From Balanoglossus misakiensis (lineage: Eukaryota; Animalia; Hemichordata), in contig CM082590.2 in NCBI GenBank assembly GCA_040954595.2, positions 7,192,001 to 7,256,000 on the forward strand: a stretch of 64,000 bases of DNA, written 5' to 3'. A program made the position numbers and the translations under genes. Under the pieces are notes generated by a model. That model searched no databases, was not told the DNA's origin, and saw only the letters and a list, made by a program, of their open reading frames with translations. How positions within the stretch are numbered: the stretch's first letter is position 1; every line of letters starts with the position of its first letter. Shown here piece by piece: positions 2,808-47,255 of this stretch.

Positions 2808-5800
2808 TTAGATGGGCATGAAATCAAACTGCGGAACTTCGATGATCTTCATGGGATCGGTATGCATCACTACACACACCATACCATTCATCTCCTCTTT
2901 AGACCATGAGCCAGTAGGGGTTTACCTCCCCCCCCCCCCCGGGGGAATTTTTGAGACAATGTTTTTCTGAAAGCCTATCATATACTGAGTAAAATTCACT
3001 TTGTTTGCCATCTGGGCACCGGGGCGTTTTCGAGTTATTGGCTTCTAAATTATATTGGGTAACGTATGTAGAAAAGCCTAAAAGTGCATATAAATTGACG
3101 TAGGGGGGTAAATTAGTCTTGTAAAATACTGTCTCTCTGAATGTATACCTAGAACAACAGGGAAGTATTTGGTATCAAAAGAAAGCTTAATAAACAAGCT
3201 TTCCATTAATTACAAAATTAAAGTGATATGACAAATCATGACATCATAGTGACGTCATAAGTCAAAATACCCTTACGAAAATGGTGTTCTGTTCACCTAT
3301 AATTTGTATAAATGTGAGGTTTTGCAAAACACGTCTCTGAGCAATTGTACTGATGAAAACTGTGATGTGTTTGGTATCAACAGAAAGCTGATTGAGTAAA
3401 GTATCTAATTATTGCAAAATATTGATATAATAATCAATTACGTCATCATTACGTCATACTTCCAAGTACCCTTACCAATTAGTGACTATGATGACAAGTT
3501 ATTACCCTAGGAGATAGGTGCCTTTAAATAAAAAAATTGGTAAGGAAGGTTTGTGAAGTCCATTCTATGTAAAAAATGGTGCTGATTCCAAAAAAGGCAG
3601 TCTTATTGACCCCACCCAAGACAAAATTGCCATTTTGGCACTTTTTAACCCAAAAAAGGTCATTTTTAGAAAACACTAAAAACACACTGTTTTCATCACA
3701 TTCGAAGATCTGATGACATATGATATGCCTATTCTATGTAAAATTTGGTTGATATTACGAAAAAAGCAGTCTGACTGACCCCAAACGAGACAGAATTGCC
3801 TTTTTGACCATTTTTTGCCCAAAAACGTCATTTTTAGACAAAACTTAAAACACACTCTTCTCTTCATATTGATTGATTTGATGATATATGGAAAGTCAAT
3901 TCTATGTGTAAATTGGTGAATATAAAACATAAAGCAGTCTTTTTGACCCCAATCAATACAAAAATGCCATTTTTGGCCACATTTTTGAGGTCAAATAAGG
4001 TCATTTTTACAAAAAAACTAAAAACAAACTGTTTTCTTCATATTCAGACATCATGTGATATAATATAATTTCTGATTTTGTATTCAGAACGAAGAGGATA
4101 AATGTTAACAATCTATCCGGAGCTGGTATAGATGTACTTAAAAAAATTATACCATGTATAACCGACTTATAGTATACAGTGTGAATACATGGATCGTCTC
4201 GTTTTATTGTTGAGTTCCATTTTAGGCTTAATGTGCCTTTCAATATCATCAATTCAACTGATATCATATGGTATGACATTTTAAATATGCAAATATAACA
4301 TCAAAACTCAAAAGGCAAAAAACACCAATTATTTTGTTTTCTGAAAAAGACAATTGTTGACTAGAAGATGGCTTAGTGGCAATTTTGTATTGAGTGGGGT
4401 CTTAATAAGACTGTTGTGTTGGTATCAGCATATTTTTTGCAAAAAATGGACTTTCCATTCATAATCAAACATTTAAATACGAAGAAAACAGCTTGTTTTC
4501 ATTTTTTCTTGAAATGACCTTTTCGACCAAAAATGGCCAAAATGACAATTTTGTAGGGCTGAAAAGAATTTTTTTTTTGGAATTGGCTCCCATTCAACAA
4601 AAATGGACCTTCTCCGTACATCATAAGATCTGAAAATAAAGAAAGAAGTTTTCAAACAGTTACCTTTTTTAAGCAAAGTGGCCAAAATGGCATTTTTTCC
4701 CTCTGTGGAGTCAGTAAGAGTGCTTTTTTGGAAAAATCGCTACTTTTAAGATAGAATGGACTTTTATTTATTATTAGATCACCAAAGGGAAACAAATAGC
4801 ATGTTTTTAGTATTTTCTAAAAATGACCCTTTTTGGGCAAAAAGTATTTTCATCTTCATTGAGATCAATAAGATTGCTTTTTCTAGAGTCAACAGCAATT
4901 TTTCAATAAATGGACTTTTCATACATGATCAAATTTCCAAATATAAAGAAAAACGTTTGCTTATTTCTTAAAATGGCCTTTTTGGGCAAAAACTTGCAAA
5001 AATACGCACTTTAATCTTGAGTGGCGCCAATAAACCTACTTTTTTGAATACCTACCAAATTTTACACAAGGTGGGTATACAATACATTATCAGATCTCCG
5101 AAAGTGAAGAAAATATATAAGTTTTGAGTGTTTTCTAAAAATGACATTTTTGGGGCAAAAAGTGGCAAAAATGGCACATTTGCCTTGAGTGGGGGTTAAT
5201 AAGGCTGCTATTTCTGGAATCAGAACTATTTTACACAGCATAAACTTTTCATATATCACATGATCTCTGAATATGAAGAAAACAGTTTGTTTTTAGTTTT
5301 TCTGTAAAAATGACCTTTTTTGACCTCAAAAATATGGCCAAAAATGGCATTTTTGTATTGATTGGGGTCAAAAAGACTGCTTTATGTTTTATAGTCACCA
5401 TTTTACGCATAGAATTGACTTTCCATATATCATCAAATCAATCAATATGAAGAGAAGAGTGTGTTTTAAGTTTTGTCTAAAAATGACGTTTTTGGGCAAA
5501 AAATGGTCAAAAAGGCAATTTTGTCTCGTTTGGGGTCAGTCAGACTGCTTTTTTCGTAATATCAACCAAACTTTACATAGAATAGGCATATCATATGTCA
5601 TCAGATCTTCGAATGTGACGAAAACAGTTTGTTTTTGTTGTTTTCTAAAAATGACCTTTTTTGGGTTAAAAAGTGCCAAAACGGCAATTTTGTCTTAGGT
5701 GGGGTCAGTCAGACTGCTTTTTTCGTAATATCAACCAAACTTTACATAGAATAGGCATATCATATGTCATCAGATCTTCGAATGTGACGAAAACAGTGTG

Positions 5801-8800
5801 TTTTTAGTGTTTTCTAAAAATGACCTTTTTTGGGTTAAAAAGTGCCAAAATGGCAATTTTGTCTTGGGTGGGGTCAATAAGACTGCCTTTTTTGGAATCA
5901 GCACCATTTTTTACATAGAATGGACTTCACAAACCTTCCTTACCAATTGTTTTATTTAAAGGCACCTATCTCCTAGGGTAATAACTTGTCATCATAGTCA
6001 CTAATTGGTAAGGGTACTTGGAAGTATGACGTAATGATGACGTAATTGATTATTATATCAATATTTTGCAATAATTAGATACTTTACTCAATCAGCTTTC
6101 TGTTGATACCAAACACATCACAGTTTTCATCAGTACAATTGCTCAGAGACGTGTTTTGCAAAACCTCACATTTATACAAATTATAGGTGAACAGAACACC
6201 ATTTTCGTAAGGGTATTTTGACTTATGACGTCACTATGATGTCATGATTTGTCATATCACTTTAATTTTGTAATTAATGGAAAGCTTGTTTGTTAAGCTT
6301 TCTTTTGATACCAAATACTTCCCTGTTGTTCTAGGTATACATTCAGAGAGACAGTATTTTACAAGACTAATTTACCCCCCTACGTCAATTTATATGCACT
6401 TTTAGGCTTTTCTACATACGTTACCCAATATAATTTAGAAGCCAATAACTCGAAAACGCCCCGGTGCCCAGATGGCAAACAAAGTGAATTTTACTCAGTA
6501 TATGATAGGCTTTCAGAAAAACATTGTCTCAAAAATTCCCCCGGGGGGGGGGGGGGAGGTAAACCCCTACTGGCTCATGGTCTACTTGGTTCGAAATCAA
6601 TTTCATGACAGTGTCTGTGATATAGGTCATCCTAGAACATAAAAGAAAGACACCATAAGATGTTATAGACAACACAGGACACCCATCTTCCCTGGGAGCG
6701 CTACCAACGTGCACAGTGTTCACATTATAATTTTCACGTGGCGCCATTCAAATTAATTCATCCACAAACAGAAAGTGCTCATCCCACGCTAAAAGGTGTT
6801 AAATGTCAGTTAAAGTAGCCTGTTAGGTTTTAATATTCTTTACAATATTCTAGGTCGAAGTAATACTTCAACCCAGTGGAAAGTTCTTTCTATGAATGTT
6901 GTTTCTAAGTCACTAATTTTGCTTTCACCCGTTATTGTTGTTGTTGTTGTTGTTGTTGATTTTCCCTCATTATAGTCACCAACATTACATAATGTTTAAA
7001 CCTCCACTTCTAGTGAAAATAACTGAACACTGAGGTACTTACGGTGTAAAAAGCACAGTATTATTCATAGCATTGAAGTCGTCCATATAACGACAGTAAA
7101 CTTTATTTTGTATAGGTGTATCGATTCTGGCGGGACATATAGCAGCTACGTTGATTTTATTTTCACGAAATCTTTGTTCACCCTAAGGTCATAAACATGA
7201 AAACACACATTAATTATAAAAAGAATGTCTGTCTGTCTGTCTGTCTGTCTGTGTATGTATGTATGTATGTATGTATGTATGTATTCGTCCACACTCGCTG
7301 ATTAAGTCAATATACACATTTTCCTTGATTGTCGTATGCAAAATGTCCAATTTGAGCAAGTGAAAACCTACGGCAACACTTCGAGTATGCGCAAGGATTC
7401 CAGTCTTCGTAACAGCATATATTGGAATGAGAGGCGATGGGATTAAACCTAAAAGAAGGAAAGTGCAAAGATATAAAGCACCCTTGTCTACAAGTGTACT
7501 GCTTTATTTGTATTCTCAAAATACAGGCTATCACACCCAAGGCACTTAAACCTATAAACAGTATACTCTGGTAGCCTGTTGGTTAGACTCTCTCACAGCC
7601 CACGGTTCACTACAACAAGGCTCTTCACTGACGCGCCCTCAACCGTTTGGCAAGGGAGAAACACCGTTTGGTGTTGTGTAGCGAATCTCTCGCCGGGCAC
7701 ACATGCAATCAGACCATAAGCCTGCATGGACGGCGAGAGGGGCTGTGAGAGAGTCTACCTGTTGGTGTGATTGAAAGATATTTTGTTATAAGTTTGCAAT
7801 TGGTTTCATTCAAATTATCGACTTACCCCAACATGAGGCTGTATTGATGATCATTCCGCCATTTCCACCATTTTGTATTCCCATGAAATCCATTGCCAGC
7901 TCTGTACCAGACACAACGGCGCCCTAGTTGTAAGACAATGTAGCAAAATGCATGTTTATAATAGGTAACAGAAGGGCATACAACACACCACTGTTGGCTA
8001 TATACTAATAAGCATGAATACTAATGAGCATGAATATTAATGAGTAACCAGCACTCAAGTCAAGCTGGCTGGAACCCTGCATTACCATATTTGGCAATGC
8101 CGTTGGTGTGGTCGTCACCATGAGCATTCAAAAATAACCATGTAATATGGCTGGCACCAGTTGCACATACCAGATTGACGGCCATTGTTCTCTGCCAGTT
8201 GAATTCATCCATTATAGCGGCGTTGTTGAACAGCAGATCAATACTTCCATATTTAGTCTTTGTCTGCTGAAAAGCATCTGCAAGATTACTAGTTGTTATA
8301 ATCGTGTACTACTACTTCAAGATGATTCTGTTGAAATTGTCATTTTTCTCTTATTTTGTTCTTGGGCCTGGTAATTAGCTGACCTTGAATGATATTTATT
8401 ATTGGACCTGATTTGATGTCTTGTTCATGCATTTGTTGGCAAATGAATTCTTGTTCAGCCTAGAATACAAATTCTGCACAGTAACAATGCTGACTAAATA
8501 CACATAGGTTGTGCTAATAAACTGTCATCTTTTTCAGGGATTTGAACAGTAGATACACACACAAAACATACTGAAATAAGAGCGAAAAGTTACAGCTAAT
8601 GGAGCTTATACTGACCAAAACTTCACAACATATTACTGACCTTTCAGTTCAACATCTGAAGACACGTCGCATTGGATATAGAGAACCTTTTCTTCGCCAT
8701 ACTTTCCAACAAACTTCTTGTAACTGTCGCTTTTGGATTTGTCAGCAATGTCTACGAGTGCAACTCCCTTCAGATTGAACAGACGGGAAGGCAAATATCA

Positions 8801-10852: not shown

Positions 10853-13800
10853 ATGATGGCAGGTAGGAGCACCATGGCAAATATACAGCCTAACACTACC
10901 CTATATACACCCTTTTCCATGCATACCCGACAAGGTTCTTTAATAGATAGGCGTTTCCATGCATGGCCGACGAGGTTCTTAGATAGACATTTTCTTACTA
11001 ACTTACCCTTACATGACCAAGGCCATGGGGTGACTAACACCCTTACACGACCACGTCGAGGTTCTTAGATAGGGATTTCCATGCATAACCGCCGTGGTTC
11101 TTACATAGGGATTTCAATGCATAACCGTCGAGGTTCTTAGATAGGGGTTTCCATGCATAGCCGCCGTTGTTCTTAGATAAGCATTTTCTAAGATGGAGAC
11201 TTTTTTATGTTCAATGTAACATGATTTCCTTAACTTACAGTTTACCACAAGTACATTATCATTGGGGCAGGCCCAGCTGGCCTCCAGATGGGGTACTTCA
11301 TGGAGAAAGATGACGTAGACTATCTGATTTTAGAAGGATCAGATAAACCAGGGAATTTCTTCACCACGCAGCCGCGGCATCGCACCCTGATTTCAATCAA
11401 CAAGATCCACAACCCATTCCCGGAGAAAGAGTTCAACATGCGCCACGACTGGAACTCGCTTCTCTCCGACGACGATGCCTTGCGGTTCACCAAATACACG
11501 AAGGATCTCTTCCCCCGTGCAGAGGTCCTGGTGGAGTATCTGAGAGACTTCGCTGACAAGAACAAGCTGAGGATAACCTTCAAGACGTGGATCGAGAACG
11601 TGGACAAGGTCTGTATCACCCCAATATATTACATATAGGGTTAACTAATAACGTTTTTTTCATGTAGAATTAACGTTCATTTCATGTAGAATTCAAGTTT
11701 ATAACATGTAGGGTTAACGTTTATTATATATGCAGTTAGCTGATAACGTTTATTACATGTAGAATTAAAGTTTATTACATATTGGGTTAGTGTTACATAT
11801 TGGGTTAAGTGTTATTACATATTGGGTTAGTGTTACATATTGGGTTAAGGTGTTATTACATATTGGGTTAGTGTTACATATTGGGTTAAGTGTTATTACA
11901 TATTGGGTTAGTGTTACATATTGGGTTAAGTGTTATTACATATTGGGTTAGTATTTCATATAGGGTTAAGTGTCATTACATATTGGGTTAGTGATACATA
12001 TTGGGTTAAGGTGTTATTACATATTGGGTTAGTGTTATACATATTGGGTTAAGTGTTATTACATATTGGGTTAGTATTACATATAGGGTTAATTATTACA
12101 TATTGGGGTGATACAAAGGTCAAGTGCGCGGAGTCTGGAGAAGACAGGTTTAGACTGCGAAGCAGAGACGGGAATGTCTACGAGTGCGGCGTGTTGCTGG
12201 TTGCCACCGGAGCGAGGAAGGATATCGTCCCGGAGATTCCGGGCATCGAGTTGGCAGACACCTACTCCGAGCACAGCACTGACGTGAATGACTACACTGG
12301 GAAGTTTGTCGCCATATTTGGACGAGGAAACAGCGCCTTCGAAGTCGCCAACCACCTGTCTGCCGATGCTGCGGTCATTCACATATTTGGACAAGAGGCA
12401 CCTAAGTTTGCCTGGGACACTCACTTCGTCGGTAAGTGTCGCCAAGCCAAGCTCATTCCAATCTGAATAGACTATATTCCGCACTACTATACGAGACCGT
12501 ATTGCTTGGCTAGCAACCTGTTGCCCTGGTAGTTAACCAAGTCTCGCGACATCTCGCAATGATCTGAAATACATATACTGAGACAGTATTGCTTGTTTGC
12601 AATCTCATCATTTCTGGAAGTGTTAAAACCACCATTTGCATTTTGATACAACCAGCCTTTCTTATCATTTAAGGGAATTGGTCATACTTATTCCAAACAG
12701 GCATTGGTAAACATTGGTGATGGAATCATATTCGTTGTCGACAGAAGAAATAAGATGTAGGCCTACCATTTTCCCTGATATAGTATCTGTATCATTGTAC
12801 CCACATATGTATACCGTATGTCTATCCACCATTCTTTTCCATAGGTGATCTACGAGCTGTCAACAACAACGTCCTTGACATGTACCAACTGAAGAGTCTT
12901 AACTCCTACACACATTTTGATCCACGAGCTCTGAGGAAGCTGGAAAATGGGAAAATCGAGATCGACATCCAAACCCCTGGTTTGCACTGGGATCCTCCCG
13001 TCATGATCAATACAGCATTTGACTTCGATAAAGTGATCTGCTGTACCGGTTTCAGCTACGTAGATCCTGACATTTTCAGCGATAATTGTAAACCTGGTAA
13101 GTTGTCATGACAAAATACTGTACTTAAAGGCTTATTAACAAGGTGCCAGTTTTTGCAAAGTTTAAAGGTATACGGTCACCTCTAATTTACATGTCTCAAC
13201 TATAAAGCTTTTTCGGCTGCACTTTGTTGTCTGGATGTCACACTATGTGTTTTCCATGTGCTTTACTTGTGTTTCGGAGGCTCTACACATAATTTCTATG
13301 GAGGGCCTGACACCTAGAGCCTGAGAAACTTAGCACACCATGCGGGCGAGTTCACACGACACACACATCAGAATGTAGAGATCTTTGGCAACGGCGTATA
13401 TGGCTGTGTCAGCATGCTTTTGCACTTACCCTAACCCTAACCCAAGATATAACCGGAACTTTTCGGTAGGTTATTGTCCAGGGGGTAACCGTGACGTCAT
13501 GTCTTGTTAACAACAGGCGATGGTGAACACAAATATGATGAGCTCTCAGGTCAACCCTGTTACACACTGCAAGACATACATGTTCTTTCACCATCTACAG
13601 TTTTAGTTTGAAAATTGTAGTGCCATAAATAAATGGTAAACACCGATTATTCATTTTGACGAGTTTTTCACCCTCGTGTCTACAAGTTGGATGGAAGTTG
13701 TGTGTGGTTGAACGTTGATTCACTATATATACACATGTAGAATAATATAAACGGTGTCTTGTATCAAATATAATTAATGGAAAAAGGGCAGCGAGAGAGA

Positions 13801-15200
13801 GACTTTGTCCCTTTGAGGAAATCTTATCGTCTGACTATACTGTCCACAGCCACCAAGAAAGACGGCAAGTACCCGGATCTGAAGAACAATTGGGAGACAG
13901 AGAATGTAGCAGACATGTTCTACATGGGGACAGCGATGCAGGCAGTGGACAGAAAAGCTGCTTCCGGTTTCATCCATGGCTTCAGATACAACATCCGGAC
14001 GCTGTACCACTTATTGAAGGAACGGTACCACGACATTCCCTACCCATCTACGGAGCTGGAAAGAGATGCCATGACGATGAGCGAGTTCGTCGTCAGTAAG
14101 TATTAAGCTTGTAGAATATCCTTGTAGAATTACATAAATAGTGTCTTGTATCAAACAGAATTAATGGAAAAAGGGCAGCGAGAGAGAGACTTTGTCCCTT
14201 TAATGCACAGCAAGCGATGACAGTATGTAAATGTACATGGTATGTCATTGCAAATATAATCATATTCTCATTGGCAGATATTTTGTATTTTTAATACCAA
14301 CTCACACAAAATGCATAGCGAGTGTCTGTACACATACATAACTGCATATACAGAATCCTGCATATCATATGTCTTGTCTCACAACAGGTGCGTGTCAAAG
14401 TATATTCAAGTATGTAAATGTTTCACTCGCATCTTATCAACAGAGAGAGTATCGATTACAGACAGTTTGTATCAGATGTACGGCTTCCTGTGTGACGTAC
14501 TCATTGTACCGGAAGCAGGCGACCGGAAGCCGGTCTATTTCAAGGATCTCCCCGTGGATTATGTTTTCAGCAAGGAGTACTTCACTAATCAGAAGCACAT
14601 GTTTACAATCATTCTCAACTACACGTTTGAGAGGTAATGTCGGTGTGGTCGTCACTTTCCTCGATCCCCTGTTATCTCATCATTTCCTTAGTTGCCTTAA
14701 AGGGGGGCGGACGTTCCTTTTGCGCATGTGCGACGTTTCTATGTGAAAGTCTTCAACAGTGCTGTTGTCACAAGCTTAGATTCGTTTATAATGAGGTCGT
14801 GGTTCTCTTTATCTGTCACTGGTTGGAAGGTTCAAAGCCCTTTCAATTGAATTAATTGAACTAATGAAGCTTAATTTTATTCCTTCTAATGCGTGTTTTG
14901 TATCTGTTCCATCTTGTAGGCATGGACGTTTTGGTGCAATAGCAACAAGGTTCGGCACCATTCCGAACTTGGAACGAACCGACTGCCAAGCATTTCTGCG
15001 CCCGATTGTTTCCTATTACAACAAGGGAAAATATGTCGGTGAAGAAACCTGCAACGAGTCACTCATCCTTCGCTACGACATCAGAAACTTCAAAGGGATC
15101 AATGAAAGGTTAAACTTCAACAGGATTGCAAACTTCTTCAATAAATATGTAAGATTTCAAAGTCCATGCTACCAAACATGGCTAATATCATGTATGTATA

Positions 15201-15236
<36 letters not shown>

Positions 15237-15300
15237 TGTATGTATGTATGTATGTATGTATGTATGTATGTATGTATGTATGTATGTATGTATGTATGTA

Positions 15301-15335
<35 letters not shown>

Positions 15336-15370
15336 ATGTATGTATGTATGTATGTATGTATGTATCTATG

Positions 15371-15415
<45 letters not shown>

Positions 15416-15638
15416 GCATTTTTACCTACTTTTATCATGTTTATTACATGCATTTCAGACCGATGTTTCTCCTGGTGTCCATTATGATGTTCATATATGT
15501 GTTAGCGAAGAAGCCTACAAGAAGACGTTCGTGCCTCTCACAGAAGATCAGAAGAAGAGATTACCTTCAGAGTACTATGAGATGCCTGACTGCAAGACAG
15601 CTATCATGCATCTGACAAAAGATGGCGCTGAGAAGTGA
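10853..15638 (+). CDS. FOXRED2: FOXRED2-like FAD-dependent (pyridine nucleotide-disulfide family) oxidoreductase, ~595 aa
   Basis: Exons 10853-10862, 11241-11608, 12119-12431, 12845-13096, 13850-14095, 14444-14633, 14920-15148 and 15459-15638 join in frame. Motifs: IIGAGPAGLQMGYF, PRHRTLISINK, EFNMRHDWNSLL, VATG, GRGNSAFE, WDTHFVGDLRAVNN, CCTGF, SGFIHGFRY, LYQMYG. AATAAA at ~15724. The short first coding exon is the least certain part. Confidence 0.88.
10915..11185. repeat. Intronic minisatellite, ~38-40-bp unit
   Basis: ccgtcgaggttcttagatagggatttccatgcataa and variants recur through the interval. Confidence 0.75.
11612..12115. mobile_element. 504-bp TIR element forming an entire spliceosomal intron (Introner-like), with internal ~20-bp minisatellite
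   Basis: Perfect 16-bp TIRs tgtatcaccccaatat (11612-11627) and atattggggtgataca (12100-12115). AAGGTC is duplicated at 11606-11611 and 12116-12121. The GT-AG intron is 11609-12118. Confidence 0.85.
15192..15415. repeat. Compound microsatellite (TATG)n/(TG)n/(TATC)n in the last FOXRED2-like intron
   Basis: Directly visible in the sequence. Confidence 0.95.
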
Positions 15639-17688: not shown

Positions 17689-17976
17689 ATTCTTCAATAT
17701 CAAATGACGTCAGACGCGCTCAGGCAGCAGTTACATTGGCATTCAAATTTCCAGATGACGGGCAACTTCAGCAACGTGGTGCAGACAAAGACTGTGCAGA
17801 CGAAACTCCATGGGGCTGATGAGGCACCATACCTGATACATGTTACGTGTCTGGCAGTTCGTAAAAACATACTCCGGAAAAACTTTTACTGGATGCCGAA
17901 ATATTGCTTGTCCGTCACCTGGAAATGACAACGCTGTGAGTCACATGGCCAGATCACGTGATTGATAGTCAAGAAT
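17689..17976. mobile_element. Dispersed ~290-bp repeat, probably a MITE with imperfect TIRs
   Basis: Related copies lie at ~38495-38793 (inverted), ~52445-52722 (inverted) and ~40255-40445. Ends attcttcaatatcaaatgacg and cgtgattgatagtcaagaat are imperfectly inverted. Confidence 0.65.
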
Positions 17977-19350
17977 ACAAAAACTGTAACTAATGGTGAA
18001 ATTATAGCAACAAAATATATGAAATATTCCAACAATGTGACAAATACAACACAAATGTGTCAAACCCATGTCAGTTTGACACAAGGTAGCAGAAATAGAA
18101 CAAAAAATATATGAACTAAACAAGTACGTACATGTACCTTGAAACTCGTAATCCTTTATGGCTGACAAGCTGATAAAAATTTAACAAGGCTACTACACAA
18201 CACATTGTCACCAGAAATTTATTTCTGATAATTTTTTTACATGTTACTTTTCAAATACTGGCAACATGTGGACGATCAAGGTGTTATTAAATTTGGAAGA
18301 CCTGAAAAATTTCAGAAAGTTTACCTTGCACTGATTTTAAAAATGTACTTTTGGAGATGAATTTGGTCAGCCTTGTACACTATCAGAATTTGAATTGTTA
18401 TACTTCATTAGTTATGACGGTAAATGGTTTCTCAATTTCTTTGGTGAAGACCAATGTTTAAAATTTCATTTTGATTCATGATTACCTATAAATAAATTTG
18501 ACATCTGTACATCACAATTTCTCAGCCAGTTTGTCTTTCTCTATGAAACAGAGAACCCCGTTCAGCCTTTGTGCACACGCAGACTTTCACCTGTGGTGCA
18601 AATATCAGATTCTACTTGTATGTCCTCTGTAATACGTTCTCAAGTTCATGTACATGTGTGTTCCCTAACAGAGAACAATTACATTTCTCCCTGTAAGGTT
18701 TGACTTGCAAAACTATTCTGATTACACTAGATATAAAGTATCCATTCAGTTGCTACTAAGACAGAAACATTTGATTGAAAATCTATCCAACCTGTACATA
18801 CTGGTTTCTTGATAAGATTTGTGTCAGTGAGGACAGATTTCAGCACATTTGTCACTACGAAAAACACATAGATCAGGAATTATATCCTGAAAATCATACA
18901 CTAATAGTTTGCATACCAATAATTTGAATCAGTATGGCCTTAATCCATACGTGAAAGTCTCTTCAAAATTACAAAAAAAATCATGTAAATAATGTCACAT
19001 TTGCTGTGGAGACTGTAAAGTTATTAATCAATCATCTGTTGACCACTTTCATGGGAGATCATCCATTAACCCTTTCACCACATGGTTCAGTCCAAACCCC
19101 ATTGTTTGCAATGGTAAGGTTGGACCTCTAAAGAGGGAACTGGGGGTGGAAGGGTTACCCTTTCAACACCATGGTTCAGTCCAAACCCATTGTTTGCTAT
19201 GGTAAGGTTGGATCACTAAAGAGTTAAACGGGGGTGATGGTCCCTCCAGCTCCTGGTGTCCAGCACACTGGAGTTAGTCACAACAGGAAGACCTTTCCTA
19301 ATCATCTCCCATTCCCACTATTCCGGGATATTGGACACTTTTCCATGGAT

Positions 19351-22300
19351 TCAGTTTGACGGTCCCTGGCATGTTGGGCAGTCGGCCATGACGGCAGGCT
19401 GGAAGTTTTCCACTTGTATTGTCGTGTGGTATATTCCGTACTTATGCCGCATCTTCCTGGTTGCTAGCCGCAGAATCTTCTGGTTGTCGACGCTGGGATC
19501 TTAGAGAAATAAACAAAAAAATCTTTCTTTATTCTCTCTGATAAAAAAAATCACTGAGTACTGCCTCAGTTTGTCAGTCTATATGTTATTGCATCTGTCT
19601 CAGTTATATCTCCACGTTTCAGAGTAAAAAATTAGCAATCTTTTCCAGTCTTTCAATTTCTCCTCTCTTTGTGTGTGTCTCTCGCTCCCTCTCACCTCAT
19701 CCCCCTTTCACTATCCCCTTCCTGCCTAATGCTCTGACCCTCTTATAACCTATCCCCCCGACAAACACACAGAAATACCCACCGCCAGTTCTGTCCCACC
19801 CTCCCTAGCTCTGTATGTGTGAGTCAACCCCCTCTGACCCATCATCTCCCCCTACACACACACACACAAATACCCACCTCCAGTTAAAGTTCTGTCCCTC
19901 CCTCTTTCTGTATCTCTGTCTCAACCCCCTCTGACCCATCATCTCCCCCGACACCCACAAATATCTCCCTCTCTCTCCCTCCCCTTTATTTCCCCACTAT
20001 CCCCCTTTCCATCTAACACTCTAACCTACCCCAAAACAAACCCATACCACCCCTTACACTCACCTATAGCTAGATGAACAGCCATTGCTGGTTTATGTGT
20101 CGTCAGCGACCATAGATGTAAACTATGAGCCATCTGTACACCTGGGATGGACACCAAATCTTCTTTCAAAGTATTATAATCTATATCCTTAGGAGCTCCT
20201 GAAATAGCAATGAAAATTCAGTATTACAACCACATTATTTGCAATGATGTACAGTGTACTACAAAGTAACAATGCATTGTTTGTAATGATGTACAGTGTA
20301 CTACAAAGTAACAACCATTGTTTGCAATAATGTACAATGCAATACAAAGTAACAACATTGTTTGCAATGATGTACAATGTAATACAAAGTAACAACCACA
20401 CTGTTTGCAATGATATACAGTGTGATACAAAGTAACAATCACATTGTTTGCAATGATGATGTACAGTGTACTACAAAGTAACAATGCATTGTTTGTAATG
20501 ATGTACAATGTAATACAAAGTAACAACCACAGTGTTGGCAATGATGTGCAATGTAATACAAAATAACTACATTGTTTGTAATGATGTACAGTGTGATACA
20601 AAGTAACAACCAAATTATTTGCAATGATGTACACTGTAGCAATAACACATGACCTACTTTGACTGTGTCATATAGAACCCATACCCACAGCCTACGACAG
20701 GATTGATACCCAACCTTTAAATTTAAGTATTTAAAAAATTCAGTAGAATTGATCAACTCACCTTCCATAAGTACATGCATGGCATCTTTTAAAATACTCA
20801 GTGTTGTAAAAAGCACCAGAATAGAAAACAAAAACGTACAGATTGGATCCACTATTTTAGCCTCAGGCTGTAATAAAAAAAAAAAAATACGTATTAACAT
20901 AAATTTACCCTTTTACCACTATGGTCCAGTCCAAATCCATTGTTTTCTATGGTAAGGTTGGACCTCTAAAGAGGGAACTGGGGGTGAAAGGGTTAATGAT
21001 GAAAGTGCCATAAAGAGCTTGACTTTGCATTCAAATCGGTAGCCGAATCTGAATAAACAAATATAATAAAAAAGGCTGATTATGACCATGCTATTATGAT
21101 CTGTACAGGTACGTACCTTATATTTAATTATATAAGCTGCTATAAGGACACCTATACTCTGTATAAGATCTCCCAGAACGTGAATAAACGCCGCCCGAAC
21201 GTTTATATTTGTCTTCTCTGGTAGTCGCTGGGGCTCCGCTGATTGGCCACTGCAACTGTCAATCATTCGTGTATCGCTTGGGTTTATGGAGTTGGCGCTT
21301 GTGAATGACGGCTCTATGTCGATGTGACTGATTGAGACGGGGTGGGAGGTCTGTCCACCGTTGTGTTGGGTGCGGTTGTGCGATTCGGGATGGTTTGACT
21401 GGTGGCTATGACTATGAGAACTTCCAAGTCCATGGCTGTGATTGTGCCCTGTCTGGTGTAGAACTAAACCAAGTCTACAATGCAAGAGGAAGAAAATGTA
21501 TATAAGACTCAAAAATATGAAGGGGACTCTTGTCGGAACATTAAAGGGACAAAGTCTCTCTCTCGCTGCCTTTTTTCCATTAATTAGGTTTGATACAAGC
21601 CACCGTTTATATTATGCTACTTGTGGATATATAGTGGCTCAACGTTCAACCACACACAACTTCCATCCCACTTGTAGACACGATAGTGAAAAACTCACCA
21701 AAATGAATAATCGGTGTTTACCATTTATTCTTTTTGGGCGAGTTTTTACTCTCATATCCTACAAACGGGATGGAAGTTGTGTGGGGTTGAACACTCATTC
21801 ACTACATATACGCATGTACATTGACATAAACGGTGTCTTGTATCAAACATAATTAATGGAAAAAGGGCAGCGAGAGAGAGACTTTGTCCCTTTAATGACC
21901 CTTTAACCCTTTCACCACCATGGTTTGGCCCAAACCCGTTGTTTTCTATGGTAAAGTTGGACCTCTAAAGAGGCAAGTGGGTGTGAAAGGGTTAAGTAAA
22001 ATTCAACCACACTAATCATGGGTCCAATACTCACATTAAATTCAATGCAACACCACAGGCTGCTGTAATAAGCATGACATCAGCATTAATTTCATAAGAC
22101 TGGTCCAGGCATCTCTCCACTGCCAGATACACCAGCACACCAGTTAGAATCCAGATTATGAGCACACTGACTACAGCACCGATAACCTCTGGCAAAAAAG
22201 TAAACAAACAAACATTTATAATAGAAATATTTAGAAATGGAAATATTAAGAGCATATACATTCAATACATTCATAGCTGGCATATATGTACACACACAAA

Positions 22301-23564
22301 TACATACATACATACATACATACACACATATTACAGAAATACATAAGAAACAATTTCAAATATTTCAATATTTCAATAGCTTAAGTGATTTGTTTTACAG
22401 TATTTAATTGGTTTCTTAAAATCGACACTGTTCGAAACATGTTCTTTAATCCTCAAAAAATAGAATAATTATTAGGGCTTTATAATAGAAAACCTAAAAT
22501 CCTGGTGTCATGTGTGTCAGCAGGCCAGAGTAAAAATAATCTCTGTTATGCCGAAGGGGGAGGTTACATATTAATTATTCTATTTGGACCAAACCATTTT
22601 GTGAAAGTGTTTAATGTTCAGAGTGACACCATTTTCACAACTTGGGACATGAGCTTACCTGCTCTGTAAAAACCGAAGGACATTTTCCTCGTGGCCGGTC
22701 GCTTAGCAACCCAAAGGGCAAAGAGACTGATGAGGAAACTGGCGAAGTCGCTGAGAAGATGGGCAGCGTCCGTCATTATAGCCAGACTGTTAGCAATGTA
22801 TCCACCTGTGCATAAAAACAAGAAAAACAGAAATAATTCTATGTATTTTAACTAAAACCTCCACCCACTCCAGAAATAAAATGGTTCTTCCCTACCGGAT
22901 GTGTTGGTTACTTCCGGTCACCAGCGATCTGTGTCGTTTTCGGGTTTCCAAATGCACATTGCGATACTGAACACCATCGAAACTGTGCATGTTCGAAATC
23001 GCGTCAAGATCTTGGTAAATAAACGCTTAAAAACTCAGGCAAGGTGACCTTGAACCCCAAAACATGGCAGTCTACTGCGCACAAATGTTTGTAACAATCG
23101 CCTGTTCATTTCTACGGCCACCAACTTGTCAAGTCTCAACTTGAGTCAATTACTGCGCAGAGAAATCCAATCGCACACTCACCTACGATTTCAGCCACCA
23201 TGAAAACCAGGACTAAACAACAAGCGCAGATCAGCTGATTGCGAGCTTTGTCTGACATGCTCGGCGCCTGTCCGGTGTGGCAATGGTGGTCCTTCGCTCG
23301 CAGTAAATTGACCAGCGTGTCGTCGCTGTCCGACGGGCAGATCAGCGGCGCGTCGTCGTCGTCCCCGTCGCTGATCTCCTCGTCCCCGTCGTCCCTCAGC
23401 TGCAGTCGCGGGGAGTCCCGGCGGCTCATGTTGCCCCGTGAGATCGTGAACACCGGCGGATCGTCGTCGTCGTCGTCGTTCAGCAGGGCCCCGTAGTGGT
23501 TGCCGCGAAAATCTCCCAGCTCGCTTCTTACAACAAACAACTCCTGAGCGTTCGCGTTCGCCAT
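19351..23564 (-). CDS. SLC30A2: Zinc transporter, SLC30/CDF family, ZnT2/3/4/8 subfamily
   Basis: Exons 23564-23183, 22805-22659, 22188-22035, 21474-21117, 20867-20762, 20198-20064 and 19499-19351. Motifs: HHCH, SLAIMTDAAHLLSD, FGFYRAEVIGA, a His-rich loop, NINVRAAFIHVLGDLIQS, DPICTFLFS, LMEGAP, LHLWSLT, TTIQVE and a C-terminal CxxC. The exact vertebrate orthologue is uncertain. Confidence 0.92.
20222..20640. repeat. Intronic minisatellite, ~40-43-bp unit
   Basis: ttgtttgcaatgatgtacagtgtaatacaaagtaacaaccaca and variants are tandemly repeated. Confidence 0.9.
21545..21891. mobile_element. Kolobok-like MITE family 1 (TTAA TSD, AGGGACAAAG termini)
   Basis: Structure ttaa-agggacaaagtctctctctcgctgcc...ggcagcgagagagagactttgtccct-ttaa. 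Other full or partial copies are near 13630-13815, 14140-14203, 25480-25730, 26935-27148, 34964, 38925-39628 and 42940. Confidence 0.8.
21907..21991. mobile_element. Tiny (~85-bp) piggyBac-like MITE
   Basis: Structure ttaa-ccctttcac...gtgaaaggg-ttaa. Related copies are at ~19067-19230, 20905-20996, 56205-56372 and 59535-59624. Confidence 0.7.
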
Positions 23565-26424
23565 AATAATGAGCGCGCGCGCGTGTCGTGTGCAAAGTTC
23601 TGACACACTTTTCCGCTCTGAGTGTGAAAAAAAAATCCCCCTGACCCCCAATCAGGACGAAAGGAAAAGTTGAAGGTCGCCAAACAACGATTGTCTCATC
23701 GAAATCCCGAAATGAGTTATAATAAGAGCCCGATCATGTTTCAGGGACTCTGGTCAGAAATTCTCGTCTGTTGCCGCCCCTGATTTTGTCTTGGCAGCTG
23801 TGTCCATATGCTTCGGCCTACCTCATACCATACCACAGTACGGTGCTCAAGACAACTGCAGTAAATTCAGCGCACTGGGCTGCAGGCCGGCCGGGCAGTT
23901 CGCTTGGCTGGTACCTGAACAAACAGCTACTTCCCCTGTTAAAATTAAGCGCAATACCCGTTGACTGACAACTAACTTTCCAGGCGGTCAGCTGCTTCTC
24001 CTGTAATGGGTACTAGAGTTAGTATGTCCCATATCTGCCCTGTGCATCGGTCTGTAAACATTAGAATTGACGCAAGTTTACTGTTTGGTCGCGATAAGCG
24101 CCTAGCAGTAGCGATATAGATCTTTGTTTGATTAAATTTAGGAGCAGTAAATTCCTGAAAACTTGAGATGAAATCGTAAAACGCCCCCTACAGTAGTGGA
24201 TCAAAATTATAGACGTAAGAAATGCATTATACTTAGCAACTGGGCCTAGTCGGTTTCAAGGCTAGACGCGCGTTCGTTATGTCGGTTTTAAAGGTATACG
24301 GCCAGTCACCCATGCAAATTTAGCCACAGTTACCATGGTAAATTGAGATCTAGCCAATCACTGATATTCAGTGGGTGGCACACGCGAAATAAAGAGCGCC
24401 GCCATATGTTCTTTAGAACACTCAAATACAGATGTACGCCATTTCAGCCCTATGTGGGCATATGTACATTGGAGGTGACTGTATATCTGATCGATTTCAA
24501 TACGCTGTATATACAGTTGTAGGCCTAACTTTTGATATTTTTTCCCGGTAATTTTGCTGTAACTTATATAATTGATCGCATTAATTTTATTTTACAGCCA
24601 GCTAAATACCTAGTAAGCTACTATAGGCCTATAGGGTGCTCGCTTAATGTATAAGGGGTGGACCATTTGATTTCAGGGCTGGCTGGAGGATTTTTGAGAG
24701 AAAAAATCGTCGAAAGCCTTTTGCCGGGGAAAAACTTGTTTGCTGGGTAAAAAGATGCTTCCAACAAGACTTTCCAAAAGAATATTGCAAGTAGTGGGTA
24801 TGAGAAAGTTCATTGTAAATAACGACAAGGCAAGGCAAAAAATATAAGACGCACATTATAAAAGGGTTATGGTCTACGTACTCTTTTCGAAACACCTGGC
24901 ATTGCTTACAGAGTTTCATATATCTTTTCTTGACGGACTTAGCTTTACAAACCCAGCACTAAAATGGAATTGGAAAGATCCGCACAGAATTAAAAAAAAA
25001 ACAGTATAAAATGCCCCTTCATAACATGGGAATTGACGTCACCCATAATCTACCTGCAGCTGTGCTGTGTAATGGTCGGTTGCTTCTTGGTATTGAAGTG
25101 CGCGTGCGCATAGTCCTGAGTCGGTGCCGAACAGGCCAGCTGTTGACATAATACACGGTGTACGTGAGGTCGACACCTCCTCTGTTGGGAATCACACAGT
25201 GTGTGTTTCTGGGATAACTTCCCTCCAGAAACCAAAAAAAAACCAGGAAAACTTGGCCCTGTTGTGATTCGAAGCACACGCAGGACCGGAACCTGGTTAA
25301 AACGATTGGAAGTCGTCATCTATCTGGTAAGCAGATGAACATGAGAATTTACAATCCCGGTGTCAACATAGCCACCCACTGAAAATCTGTGACAGGCTAG
25401 ATCTCAATTTGCCATGGTAACAGTAGCTAAATTTCCATAGGTGATCGTATAACTTTAACTAACAGTTTTCAAAGCGGACATGAGGGTAAAAATCTCGACT
25501 AAATGAATAAATGGTAAAGACTGATTGACTGATTATTCATTTTGGTGAGTTTTTCACTCTCGTGTCTACAAACGGGATGGAAGTTGTGTGTGGTCGAACG
25601 TTGATTCACTATATATCCACATGTAGAATAACATAAACGGTGTCTTGTATCCAACATAAGTAATGGAAAAAGGCAGCGAGAGAGAGAGAGACTTCGTCCC
25701 TTTAATAAGAGAGAGACTTCGTCCCTTTAATACCAACAGAGGCCCATATGTCGCGAATTGTACCCAAAGCTCGCCTAGTGCTTTATGTATTTTTTGTGTA
25801 ACAGCTGGTTCAAATCTCTTAATCCAATGTATTACATGTATTGCATATGTAATACTGTTTTCTAAGTGGTCCTAGCAATTATAATTCTGGGGTATTTTTG
25901 CAAGCTCATATGCAAATGAGCATCCAGAATAATAAGATCCCCCATTTCCCCCTCGAACGATCGTATATTTCAATGTTTATCCCCCGTGCTGTTACATGAT
26001 CATTTGTAGTTTATATAAACCTCCGGAGAATTATCAATATTTTTAATTTTATTCGCAAAAAGGCGATTGTTGTTAATAGTTGTGCGCGCGACAAATGGTA
26101 TTTTACAACCCATACGCAAATTAGTAAAAAACAACCCGGACTACGTTCTGTTTGTGAATATTGAACGCCGTCGGCAGAGCTGGGTTATAACGTGGGGGAA
26201 CTTTCAACATTCAGGGACGTCATTGTCTTTTCCTTTTCCCAACTATTGTCAGAATAACAAAACACCAAGTTGTCAGTATATGTTTTGGAACCTCGAAAAT
26301 GACGAAAATCTCTCTCGTTATCGCCAGTGTTTTCAAATATTATCGATGCGTTGGTGAGCATTATATATATAAGTTTTCTTCATTGAAAAAAATATTTTTA
26401 CAGGACGAACATGTGCGTTTGGAA

Positions 26425-28912
26425 ATGATGGAGTTGACATCTGCCAAGAAGGTGATGGTTTTATTGGTGGCGATAATGGTGCTTATTGTTGTTCTGATTG
26501 AGTACAAAGGCCAGCTAAGTGTAACACAATTAAGACCCGTGAGTGATATGGACCTACAAGCTCAGATTCCAAGAAGGTGAGTTTGTTACCACTGCGAGGT
26601 AAATACACCCTTTTCATAAGTCTACCGCCCTCACACAGCCATCGCGAATTTGAACTCAAAGCAAGGCTAATGGGAAATCCCGATTGGTCAGCTTTCCTCA
26701 TTGGCCTCGCTTGTGACATCATACACGGTATTTACATAAATTTGCATGTGGCTGAAAATGTTTTCTTCTGTTGTTCATAGCTCACCTGAACCAAGTAGTA
26801 CTCAATCACATTCAGAGGTGGCATATCTACCAGAAGACCCAAGGAATGCGACGAGCTTGGCTGAGCTAAAGTAAGTTTCTTGCGGATGGACAGAGTCCGA
26901 CCTAACTACCTACCTACCTACCGACTTAACCATTTAAAGGGACAACTCCCGTCAAAATGAATAAACAGTAAATACCGATTATTCATTTTGGCGAGTGTTT
27001 CACTCTCGTGTCTACAAGTGGGATGGAAGTTGTGTGTGGTCAAACGTTCATTCATGATATATCCACATGTAGAATAACATAAATGGTGTCTTGTATCAAA
27101 CACAATTAATGGAAAAAGGGCAGCGAGAGAGAGACTTTGCCCCTTTAACTAACGAACGAACGAAGGTACAAACTGACTAATTCGCTCACCCACTCACTCA
27201 CTAACTAATTCCATTTCACATTTTCTATGAATCAGATTCTCTTTGTGAAGTTGATATAAATTGCAGAAAATTAATTAATTAATTAAATATTTTTATTGTT
27301 TTATTTTATTTATTTACTTATTTATTTTCAGTCATTTAATTTCTTTATACTAGTACATTTTTTGCTTTCGTGTTTCCTGTCTAGGAACATCATCTCTAAA
27401 AACTTAACTTTGGAAAACTCGTTAGCAATATTTCGCTCCAACGCTGCCTTGGATTTAGTTCTCAATAAAGGATTCCCCCAGGATGCCACAGAACCGGATG
27501 CCCCTCTTTCTAGTCGCGCCCGGATACTCTATGATATCCTATTCTCCACCCTGAAACAACAGAAGTCGTGCGCATTGGTGGGAAACGGTGGTATTCTCAA
27601 AGACAGCGACTGTGGACGTGAGATAGACAGTCATGATTTTGTGATGAGAGTAAATTTACCTAAATTAATTGGATTTGAAAAGGATGTTGGAAAGAAAACT
27701 GACTTACAAGCTTTCAACCAATATGTAGGCATCGATTTGGCTAAAGCCGTCGGCCAGACGACAAAGTCAAAAAGAAAGAAAAAACAGAATTTACCAGATA
27801 TCTTGGAGAGGCTTGCCAACCTACACAACTCAACTGTTTGGTTTCCCTATAAGTTGTCAGGATGGAACGGTACACTCAACAATTCAATCGTTATGATGCA
27901 GAACATATTGAGACAAACCAAGTTGGGGGTGATAGCTATGGACTACAGCGTTGCATACTCTCCGGTACCATTATGGCCGGATATAATGAACAGGTACGTG
28001 ACTTCACACAAACAAACACAAACATAGTCTCGGTTACCCAGAGCCCTCTGCTTCTTCCGTTGGGCACTCCAGAAAGAAGGTCTGGGGAAACCCCATAGAC
28101 AAATCTCAGGGCAAAGATGGCCGACTCGGGACAGAAGTGGTGCATGATGGTTGCAGACTCGAACATTAAAAATACATTCTGAGACGTGCTGGACCTGCTG
28201 AAACTGTCTACAAATTGAAAAGAGAAAGAGAAGTTTGGTAAATGGTTTTCTAATATCGTCATATCATAATATCGTATGTCATAAATGTTGTCCGTCATGC
28301 ATCGCTTTTGTCCCGACTCAGCCATCTTTGCCCTGAGAATTGTCTATGGGGTTTCCCCAGACCCTCTTTCTGGAGTGCCCAACGGAAGAAGCAGAGGGCT
28401 CTGGGTAACCGAGACTAACACAAACAAAGAAAAAATGGCAGAGACAAACAAACAGACAGAGACAGACAGACAGACACATGGACACACAAAATGACCCACA
28501 ACCACACGATAAATTGTAGAACGTAGGATCTGCTAATGAAAATGTAAGGCCGAATTATGACTAATAAACGGAGAATTCAAATAATATTTTGATGACGAAA
28601 ATACAGTTCGCATCCCAAGCTACCAACGTAAAATTAAACGTTATATTTTTCAGAATATGGAACAAAATCAAAAACAGCGAAGGTTTTACACTGTTTACCA
28701 TGTCGACGCTTTTCTGCGAGAAACTGACTCTCTATGGATTTTGGCCCTTTTCTGAGGACTCGAGAGGGCGCAAGTTGAATCATCACTACTACGAGAATTT
28801 CATCTACAATGCCAGCACAAATAACGCCATGCCTCCGGAGTTTGAAATTTTGAAAAAATTCAATCGCTCAAATGTCATAAGTCTCGTTACAGAGAAATGT
28901 ACTAAGCACTAA
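26425..28912 (+). CDS. ST8SIA: ST8Sia-like (alpha-2,8-sialyltransferase type, GT29) type II membrane protein, paralogue A
   Basis: Exons 26425-26576, 26781-26870, 27385-27993 and 28654-28912. N-terminal signal anchor; sialylmotif [32 protein letters not shown]; motif S SEGF...[14 protein letters not shown]; motif III HHYYE; VS-like NAMPPEF; C-terminal Cys as in ST8Sia enzymes. Confidence 0.88.
28025..28417. mobile_element. AcademH-like MITE (TAGTCTCGGTTACCCAG family), 9-bp TSD
   Basis: Long TIRs tagtctcggttacccagagccc... / ...gggctctgggtaaccgagacta; TSD acacaaaca at 28016-28024 and 28418-28426. Confidence 0.88.
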
Positions 28913-30106: not shown

Positions 30107-31557
30107 CACAGGGATTTATTCAGGGAACGTTTAAGTAAGAATTATATGATATAAACTGAATAAATTTGTTGTCGGTCAACTCTTCTGTCTTTGTCTTACC
30201 GATACGGTTCTAACCGGAACACTAAGGCTTCACTGCTCATACACTACACATTATAAACAATGGATGATAAAATGTGCCCTCTTTTGGTGAACTCTGCCTA
30301 CCGCCTGACCTTCTACCTAGCTATGTCTAGTATAGTCTCGGTTACCCAGACGCCTTTGCTTCTTCCGATGCTCTCCAGAAAAGGGTCTGGGGAAATGCTA
30401 TTGAAAGCTTGCCTCTCAAGAGGGCGCCCTCAATGACCTTTGGCTTTTCAGAGACGCGGTCAAGAGGTCTCTCCAAATCCGTTTCATTCAACCAATGAGA
30501 GCGCTGAAGTGGCGTTCGATTTAGGGGAAGGTAACTGATTCGTCAATGGCGTTCCACCGGAAGTATCACCATGGTTGCCTACTTACTTCACGATTTCATT
30601 TTTATAGATCGATCGCCAAAAATTGAGATAATCGGAATTATTTTACACGTAATCATAATTTACGAGTACAAGTGTCGTTTGTTGTTCTGAACGTCTGTTC
30701 TACACGTATGCCACGTCACGTGACAAGGACGTTACGCGTACTGATCGAACGTGCACGCGATCCATGCACGCGATGGAACTTCTGTCTGGCATATTAGCCA
30801 ATCATATGAAGCAACATCTTGCATGGTACTAGCCAATCACAGCACGAGCTCAAACGGATTTGGAGAGACATCTTGCACCGCGTCTCTGAAAAGCCAAAGG
30901 TCATTGACGGCGCCCTCTGGAAAGGCAAATTGAAAGCTTTGTAAAACAAAATGGCCGATGTTAGGATTTTGATCATCGCCTGATTGGCTGAGCTGTCAGT
31001 ATGACCCGGGTCACTGCAATAGTTTCGACAATCGTCTACCAAAGATATTTCATATAATTTCTCCAACAATGCTAACAGAGGACGCCTTTTGCCTTTCGCA
31101 TCCATTAACAAGTACCGGTCTCTTGATATGAAGATACGACAAATAATCACACATTGTCGAGAGTCAGTGACCCGGGTCATACTGACAGCTCAACCAATCA
31201 GGCGATGATCAAAATCCTGACATCGGCCATTTTGTTTTACAAAGCTTTCAATAGCATTTCCCCAGACCCTTTTCTGGAGAGCATCGGAAGAAGCAAAGGC
31301 GTCTGGGTAACCGAGACTATGTCTAGTAAGGCATTTAGGCGGTCAGCTGGAGGGGTCAGGCGGTAGGAAGAGTTCACCAAAAGAGGGCGCATTTTATCAT
31401 CCATTGTTTATAATGTGTAGTGTATGAGCAGAGAAGCCTCAGTGTTCCGGTTAGAACCGTATCGGTAAGACAAAGACAGAAGAGTTGACAGACAACAAAT
31501 TTATTCAGTTTATATCATATAATTCTTACTTAAACGTTCCCTGAATAAATCCCTGTG
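30107..31557. mobile_element. Palindromic MITE with CACAGGG termini and 7-bp TSD (P-superfamily-like), carrying a nested insertion
   Basis: ~200-bp inverted arms cacagggatttattcagggaacg... / ...cgttccctgaataaatccctgtg; TSD ctgtgaa at 30100-30106 and 31558-31564. Confidence 0.8.
30333..31319. mobile_element. AcademH-like non-autonomous element (TAGTCTCGGTTACCCAG family), nested in the 30107-31557 element
   Basis: TIRs tagtctcggttacccagacgcc / ggcgtctgggtaaccgagacta; 9-bp TSD tgtctagta at 30324-30332 and 31320-31328. Confidence 0.88.
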
Positions 31558-45530: not shown

Positions 45531-47255
45531 TTAGTGCCTAGCACATTTCTCCGAGACAAGCCTTATGACGTCAGAGCGATTAAAGTCTTGAAAAATTTGA
45601 AATTCCCGAGGCATGGTGTTTTTTACGGTAACATTGTATCTCACATCCTCGTAGTAGTGATGATTCAACTTGCGCCCTCTCGAGTCCTCAGAAAAGGGCC
45701 AAAATCCATAGAGAGTCAGTTTCTCGCAGAAAAGTGTCGACATTGTAAAAAGTATAAAACCCTCGCTGCTTCTATTGTTCCATAACCTGAAAAATATAAG
45801 GTGTAGAGTTACGGTGTTAAAGTACATTTCGACCATTTAGTCTTTTCGTCATCAAATTATTATTTAAAAATTCCCTGTTTAGAAATTCATAATGAACAAA
45901 TGAACGAATGAATGGATGAATGAATGAACGAATAAACAAACGAACGAATGAATAAATGAATAGGTGGATGGATAATAGCATGAATGGACGAACGAACGAA
46001 CGATTGAATGAATGGATGAATGAATGAATTAATTGATGGATGGATGGATGGATGAAAGAATGAATGAATGAATCATCTCACCTTCTCATTGTTCCCGGCC
46101 ATATAGGCACCGGAGAGTATGCAACGCTGTAGTCCATAGCTTTCAATCCAAACTTCGTCTGTCTGAGCACATTTTGCATCATCAGTTTTGATTCGTTCAG
46201 TTTGCCGTTCCATCCTGACAACGTATATGGAAACCAAACAGTTGCGTTGTGTAAGTTGGCCAGCCTCTCCAAAATATCTGACAAATCCTGACCTTTCTTT
46301 CTTTTGGATTTTTCTTCTGGATTCAAAGCTTCATACAAGTAGATGCTCACAAATTGGTTGATCGCTTGTAAGTCAGTTTTCTTTCCAACATCCTTTTCAA
46401 ATCCAATTAATTTAGGTAAATTTACTCTCATCACAAAATCATGACTGTCTATCTCACGTCCACAGTCGCTGTCTTTGAGAATACCACCGTTTCCCACCAA
46501 TGCGCATGACTTCTGTTGTTTCAGGGTGGAGAATAGGATATCATAGAGTATCCGGGCGCTACTAGAAAGAGGGGCACCCGGTTCTGTGGCATCCTGGGGG
46601 AATCCTTTATTGAGAACTAAATCCAAGGCCGCGTTGGAGCGAAATATTGCAACAGTATTTTCCAGGGTTATCCTTTTGGAGATGATGTTCCTGTAAAGAA
46701 AATGTGAATGAGACAAGTGTGATGAAATGCAAAACGATAAAAAGTTTACTCTGTTACCTTCTGGCCTCGTTTTCACGTGTCGTCTGCTTGTACATGACGC
46801 TATGTTTGGAAGGGCGCCCTCTTTATAAATAAAAAATATACGAGCATGGAACTTTACCTCAGCTCTGACAAGCTCGTCGCATTCCTTGGATCTTCTGGTA
46901 GATGTTTCACCTTCAAAAGATGTTGGGTACTGTTTGGTTCTGGTGCAGAGCTAATGAGATTGGAAGATGTGATTCTTTGTAATTTATTTGTGTTACCCCG
47001 GCAACCATTCCATCGAGATAGTACACAAAGCAGCACTTGCTTGAAGAGCTCAGAATACACCATTTCGGCCATTTATAACTTTAATGAGTAAGGTAGTTGG
47101 TCTATAAGTTGAAAAACCCACCTTCTTGGACTCTGTGCTTGGAGATACGTACTTCTCATAGTCAGCTGGCCTTTGTACTCAATTAATATCAAAATAACAA
47201 CCATAATGGCCACCAATAAAACCATAACCTTCTGCACAATACTCAGCCCCTTCAT
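45531..47255 (-). CDS. ST8SIA: ST8Sia-like GT29 protein, paralogue D
   Basis: Exons 47255-47122, 46950-46858, 46690-46082 and 45786-45531. Same sialylmotifs; VS-like NTMPREF. Confidence 0.88.

Follow-up and report, generated by a model that had tools for sequence, protein, structure and literature searches.

A short inverted-repeat transposon that likely forms an entire intron of a FOXRED2-like gene in an acorn worm

A 504-bp element within an exon of a FOXRED2-like gene

The window (the whole stretch of DNA that we analyzed, 64 kb from the hemichordate Balanoglossus misakiensis) contains a FOXRED2-like gene, and a 504-bp element lies inside a coding exon of this gene. The relevant parts of the gene are as follows.

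10853 to 15638, plus strand: host gene, a FOXRED2-like FAD-dependent oxidoreductase with eight predicted coding exons, 595 amino acids and no internal stop
11241 to 11608, plus strand: upstream coding exon of the FOXRED2-like gene
12119 to 12431, plus strand: downstream coding exon of the FOXRED2-like gene

The best protein matches were FOXRED2-like proteins from Ptychodera flava (80 to 81%) and Glandiceps talaboti (77%), and a match to Pfam PF13738 runs across the interruption, with positions 1 to 109 on the left exon and 108 to 203 on the right. There is no stop or frameshift in the 1,788 coding bases of the eight-exon model, and the length of the predicted protein compares with 593 to 597 residues in the four closest homologues. 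We aligned it with 15 of the 120 homologues listed, namely the closest hemichordate proteins plus five other animal proteins, and found that all 76 columns invariant across these 15 chosen homologues were kept in the host protein. The exon junction falls in a variable loop, where there is no length difference from the closest homologues. Of nine relative-rate comparisons, two were significant, both of them against one homologue (P0003) and with the host protein evolving faster, while the other seven were not; the host branch, at 0.27, slightly exceeds those of its sisters in length.

To compare the window with other DNA, we used public assembled contigs from X1 and X2, which carry the same sample code, and from X3 and X5, which represent a related second organism (organism B). 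X1 may be the source sample of the window. X3 is labeled "RNA?" but behaves like DNA, its repeat depth and loose ends paralleling those of X5; as its homologues also have no coverage near the junction, X3 is silent on splicing. Close paralogues of the host gene number three in P. flava and one in the X1 and X2 contigs, and since the gene belongs to an expanded family, its loss could be tolerated. The 120 proteins listed (P0001 to P0120) indicate a large expansion of FOXRED2-like genes in hemichordates, and they include many matches of bacterial or metagenomic origin (55 to 66%) that score as well in the first exon as those from other animals. A homologue in the X1, X2, X3 and X5 contigs joins the exons around the next intron, 12432 to 12844 (joint from 12430 to 12844, loose end at 12844). 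Because this joint occurs in apparent DNA, it points to a paralogue without that intron, and hence to either a second gain in the gene or a loss in the paralogue.

Anatomy of the insertion

The element and its flanking repeats were resolved into the following features, all within the interrupted exon.

11612 to 12115, no strand assigned: non-autonomous terminal inverted repeat (TIR) element, MITE-like, 504 bp, without coding capacity, recognized by its TIR and duplication anatomy and by X1 depth
11606 to 11611, plus strand: left AAGGTC copy of the 6-bp target-site duplication; donor AAG/GT, cut after 11608 (from sequence)
12116 to 12121, plus strand: right AAGGTC copy of the duplication; AG acceptor, cut after 12118 (from sequence)
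11612 to 11627, plus strand: 16-bp left TIR, whose first five bases occupy intron positions +4 to +8 and agree with the donor consensus at +5 to +8
12100 to 12115, minus strand: 16-bp right TIR with the family terminus at 12115, where contigs of other loci end
11630 to 12115, plus strand: 23 head-to-tail units of 18 to 29 bp, with a core common to the TIR

The TIRs are perfect for exactly 16 bp and no further, and they end in TGT...ACA (terminal five bases, TGTAT). Both AAGGTC copies lie flush with the element ends, and the repeat cannot be extended. At 29%, the GC content of the element is far from that of the flanking exons (51% and 56%). No open reading frame of 110 amino acids is present within the 504 bp, which are short and noncoding. 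None of 300 block shuffles of the window gave a structure with a 16-bp TIR and a 6-bp duplication. The initial annotation had described a 504-bp element with perfect 16-bp TIRs and 6-bp AAGGTC repeats, and this description matched the sequence exactly; the repeated units of the interior are an addition to it.

Both junctions of the element are present on independent assembled contigs of X1 and X2, and on this basis we rejected an assembly artifact. At 11587, the X1 junction contig, which ends at 11646, reads G, while the X2 junction contig reads A (a synonymous difference); the latter also has T at 11647 and extends into the element for 65 bases. The difference at 11587 places the element on two haplotypes. 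No joint skipping the 510 bases, as expected of an empty site, was present in X1 or X2, whose contigs show the presence of alleles and not their absence. One organism B contig spans both exon sides (11457 to 12307), in a single piece, with the repeat not matched between them.

Copies at other loci

In X1, summed contig depth exceeded 2,400 in 17 of 20 bins across the element, compared to 23.5 to 30.9 in its flanks, and the high depth ended at the element ends; summed depth is not a copy number, and we read it only as "many." Contigs of other loci also stop at the right terminus. Among the rows listed, four X1 contigs end at 12115; X2 contigs end at 12115, 12116 and 12117 (two, three and one, respectively); and ends at 12115 and 12116 number 19 and 10 in X3 and 19 and 9 in X5, with a further 10 and 8 ends at 12113 in these two organism B sets. 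A right terminus at 12115 followed by mixed flanks in X1, X2, X3 and X5 indicates dispersed copies in two organisms, as anticipated by the initial annotation, which had proposed a possible family of such elements. At the left terminus (11612 to 11624), no other contig was matched in X1 or X2. Opposite-strand joints in the organism B contigs suggest that elements with longer inverted arms exist, from one of which the present copy may derive by deletion.

We found no second copy in the 64-kb window. Searches farther afield were likewise negative: a 20-mer of the right end had no match in metagenomes, an 18-mer had 18 matches there, each a single unit without a second TIR, and a 16-mer had 23 matches in viral sequences, none of which extended; we attribute the 18-mer and 16-mer matches to chance. 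Taken together, the TIRs flush with the duplication and the dispersed, multicopy family in the contigs uphold the original reading of the insertion as a TIR transposon, and the element is best read as a non-autonomous, MITE-like DNA transposon of a many-copy family.

Affinities of the transposon

The initial annotation had linked the TGT...ACA termini to Ginger-type elements. Such ends are indeed common to Ginger1, Ginger2/Tdd and the present element. However, published Ginger elements have TGTNR ends, TIRs of about 40 to 270 bp and duplications of 4 bp (Ginger1) or 4 to 5 bp (Ginger2/Tdd) (Bao et al. 2010, PMC2836005), and the present copy departs from all three features, with its TGTAT end, 16-bp TIRs and 6-bp duplication. 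We therefore rejected Ginger1 and Ginger2, while noting that full copies may have longer TIRs than this one and that the Ginger2 duplication is given as 6 bp in one source (PMC6839031) and as 4 to 5 bp in two others (PMC2836005, PMC10045372).

IS3EU/GingerRoot elements fit better than Ginger, and we regard them as the candidate class. They occur in animals, make 6-bp duplications and favor GC-rich targets (PMC6839031, PMC10045372). The present element shares the 6-bp duplication (in the one copy seen here) and the TG...CA end, a minority form found in 5 of 77 GingerRoot elements in these reports. In contrast, the ends of this class are mostly TA...TA, and GingerRoot TIRs measure 100 to 150 bp against the 16 bp of the present element. 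None of the 49 long open reading frames of the window encodes an integrase-like transposase. A Tc1-type transposase remnant (PF01498), split by a stop, was the only transposase among them, at 49258 to 50304; it is an implausible partner for the element, as Tc1 makes a TA duplication (PMC10045372).

Other repeats and genes lie elsewhere in the window. Four other TIR elements have 9-bp duplications and TIRs of 18 to 78 bp (7584 to 7757, 28025 to 28417, 30108 to 31556 and 30333 to 31319); the last is nested within the third and has a TIR in common with the second. A foldback-like element at 2899 to 6585 has arms that are 98% complementary and exceed 900 bp; it also contains internal tandem repeats of 169 bp and is apparently flanked by a 3-bp duplication. 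An 87-bp satellite at 1 to 2750 switches orientation near 1240 and near 2000. A young tandem expansion comprises four nearly identical exons of sialyltransferase (GT29) type, which lie in both orientations at 27287 to 28027, 36644 to 37294, 41024 to 41779 and 46078 to 46950. On the minus strand are a C2H2 zinc-finger gene below 9512, a zinc-transporter-like gene at 17700 to 23570 and a short-chain dehydrogenase-like gene at 54447 to 56006, the latter two named by eye from their translations.

Splice signals of the predicted intron

Two further features, both predictions, concern splicing.

11609 to 12118, plus strand: predicted phase-0 intron, 510 nt, GT...AG, called from sequence
12088 to 12099, plus strand: candidate branch-point region, with T-N-A-Y motifs at a distance of 21 to 27 nt from the 3' end; the surrounding 30-nt stretch contains no AG

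The predicted intron consists only of the element and three bases of each duplication copy, and the similarity does not extend into the exons. Its excision leaves GAC AAG GTC AAG (D-K-V-K) in frame. The proposal that the left repeat copy supplies the GT donor and the right copy the AG acceptor, and that removal of 11609 to 12118 restores both D-K-V-K and the frame, was thus borne out by the sequence. Retention, on the other hand, would bring in a stop 9 codons later.

The donor matched 8 of 11 consensus bases, compared to 6 to 8 in the other six introns of the gene. No acceptor in the gene is weaker than this one: only 6 of the 16 bases at -19 to -4 are pyrimidines, compared to 10 to 13 of 16 in the other six introns, in agreement with the earlier remark that it lacks their pyrimidine-rich tract, and its triplet is AAG where all six others have YAG. 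The AG at 12117 to 12118 is, however, the first after the AG-free stretch that holds the branch-like motifs, and the next two AGs beyond 12118 are also in frame, both within the variable loop of the protein.

Pairing of the TIRs had been put forward as a means of bringing the two splice sites together. A TIR hairpin is indeed predicted, with pairing of 0.83 to 1.0 for 15 of the 16 pairs, and it spans donor positions +4 to +19 and acceptor positions -19 to -4. That it helps splicing is doubtful, as it covers the sites that U1 and U2AF must bind; a hairpin over donor and acceptor could hinder splicing as well as help it.

Only 15 of the 1,783 six-mers of the host coding sequence contain AGGT. 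We infer splicing because such targets are rare and because the gene is intact with the element on two haplotypes. On these grounds, the element is likely excised as a 510-nt intron, leaving the protein unchanged.

Alternative explanations

The insertion might instead have knocked out or crippled a redundant paralogue, in which case the AG/GT would be coincidental and the gene a young pseudogene. The purine-rich acceptor, masked by the predicted hairpin, the stop that follows upon retention, the many paralogues and the slightly long protein branch are all what one would expect of a dead gene. We nevertheless consider this unlikely, since the coding bases are free of stops and frameshifts and all 76 invariant columns are kept despite the presence of the element on two diverged haplotypes, and since a random target would be expected to hold AGGT in just the 15 of 1,783 six-mers noted above. 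More improbable still is that the left inverted end arose by local repair or template switching of a one-ended, satellite-like repeat, or that the element is a solo LTR (TG...CA). Such an origin would fit the interior, where tandem units with a core common to the TIR all run in one direction, and also the fact that no other contig was matched at the left terminus. Against it, the left end matches exactly, in reverse complement, the family terminus set by other loci, and it is flush with a perfect 6-bp duplication. Inverted arms are also suggested in other copies by the organism B joints, and this copy is then more simply an internal deletion derivative. Finally, we give hardly any credence to an older intron that occupied this site before the element overwrote or filled it. 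The orthologues were compared as proteins, which carry no readable intron positions, and this leaves some room for such a history; the bases that accompany the element in the intron, three per duplication copy, are nevertheless coding on the other side, and no remnant of an earlier intron is left.

A different question is whether the element belongs to a true Introner family, one that prefers AG/GT or is repeatedly retained there and has given rise to at least four introns in unrelated genes. In favor of this, there are many copies in the contigs, the first bases of the TIR complete a donor next to a NAGGTN duplication whichever way the element is oriented, and the listed flank consensus rows are G/C-rich at their first two bases, a weak hint of a bias that could direct insertion to exons. 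But there is one copy in 64 kb, and in either orientation the end that would serve as acceptor is rich in purines. No flank beginning with AAG was found among the listed right-end rows of other copies, and C was the second base of every multi-contig flank consensus at 12115 or 12116 in those rows (consensus sequences, not single flanks). In addition, the unique contig over the right junction extends without a break from 12088 to 12602, which, judged from contig branching and assuming 31-letter words, would mean that no other copy has the same last 27 bases followed by AAG. We found no second intron made by the family in the 64-kb window, and the listed flanks of other copies gave no sign of AG/GT targets. 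The notion of an intron-generating family that targets AG/GT, raised in the initial annotation, is therefore unsupported, and we rate it as improbable. While the element works like an Introner, it is best understood as one lucky event and not as a member of an intron-making family.

Discussion

Our preferred explanation, which we hold to be probable, is that a transposon landed on AG/GT by chance and is spliced out. A DDE transposase acting in trans would have cut the AAGGTC site with a 6-bp stagger, the target holding AG/GT by chance. The left duplication copy would then supply GT, with the element's own first bases completing a good donor, while the right copy would supply AG, and use of this weak acceptor would depend on a branch point some 25 nt upstream and on choice of the first AG. 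Because it was spliced, the insertion would have been allowed by selection to persist.

Clean recent intron gains are rare in animals. With its full insertion scar and unusually poor acceptor, the present intron would offer a test of how little the animal spliceosome needs for a new intron and of whether TIR pairing helps or hinders. A more ambitious proposal, which we think improbable, is that the TGT...ACA family with its 6-bp duplication is the first hemichordate Introner, its donor completed on NAGGTN and its GC-rich bias directing it toward exons, and that it has made several acorn worm introns. If this were true, spliced and unspliced sister copies would be available for direct comparison.

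Known intron-gain mechanisms are left unchanged by the present case. The mechanism is the textbook AGGT-insertion model, in which a transposon enters AGGT and the duplication gives AG/GT and AG/G without changing the coding sequence; 35 such events are tabulated in Oryza, Drosophila, Oikopleura and Zea (Yenerall and Zhou 2012, PMC3443670). It is also catalogued in a sea urchin and a tunicate, and single transposon-derived introns occur in many eukaryotes (reviewed in PMC11282704). That Introners take their splice sites from bases of the TIR or the duplication, as the initial annotation stated, has already been described (PMC9860276, PMC12130899). In the 2025 survey, Saccoglossus is entered with zero Introner families, and Ptychodera was not found in a search of 12 of its 14 supplementary files (PMC12130899). 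Within the parts covered, the literature on hemichordate transposons, Ptychodera MITEs and transposon-derived introns held no publication on the present element. The insertion is likely a clean, transposon-made intron, predicted from sequence to be spliced, in a group without a catalogued example.

Among known systems, the Introners of Florenciella co-opt both splice sites (Gozashti et al. 2022, PMC9860276), as do fam1 of Strongylocentrotus purpuratus, which is classed as non-LTR, and fam1 of Styela clava, a hAT family with an 8-bp duplication (Gozashti et al. 2025, PMC12130899). These Introners resemble the present case in that a non-autonomous element takes both splice sites from its insertion site, and they include deuterostome examples. 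The present element also spans the whole intron, as Introners do. In the 2025 survey, however, an Introner family comprises at least four similar introns in non-paralogous genes, and the Florenciella, urchin and tunicate families have at least four introns with RNA support, whereas here there is one intron, with TGT...ACA ends and a 6-bp duplication. The AGGT model of Yenerall and Zhou describes exactly the present case, from which their published events differ in that the host here is a hemichordate, the duplication is 6 bp and splicing is predicted.
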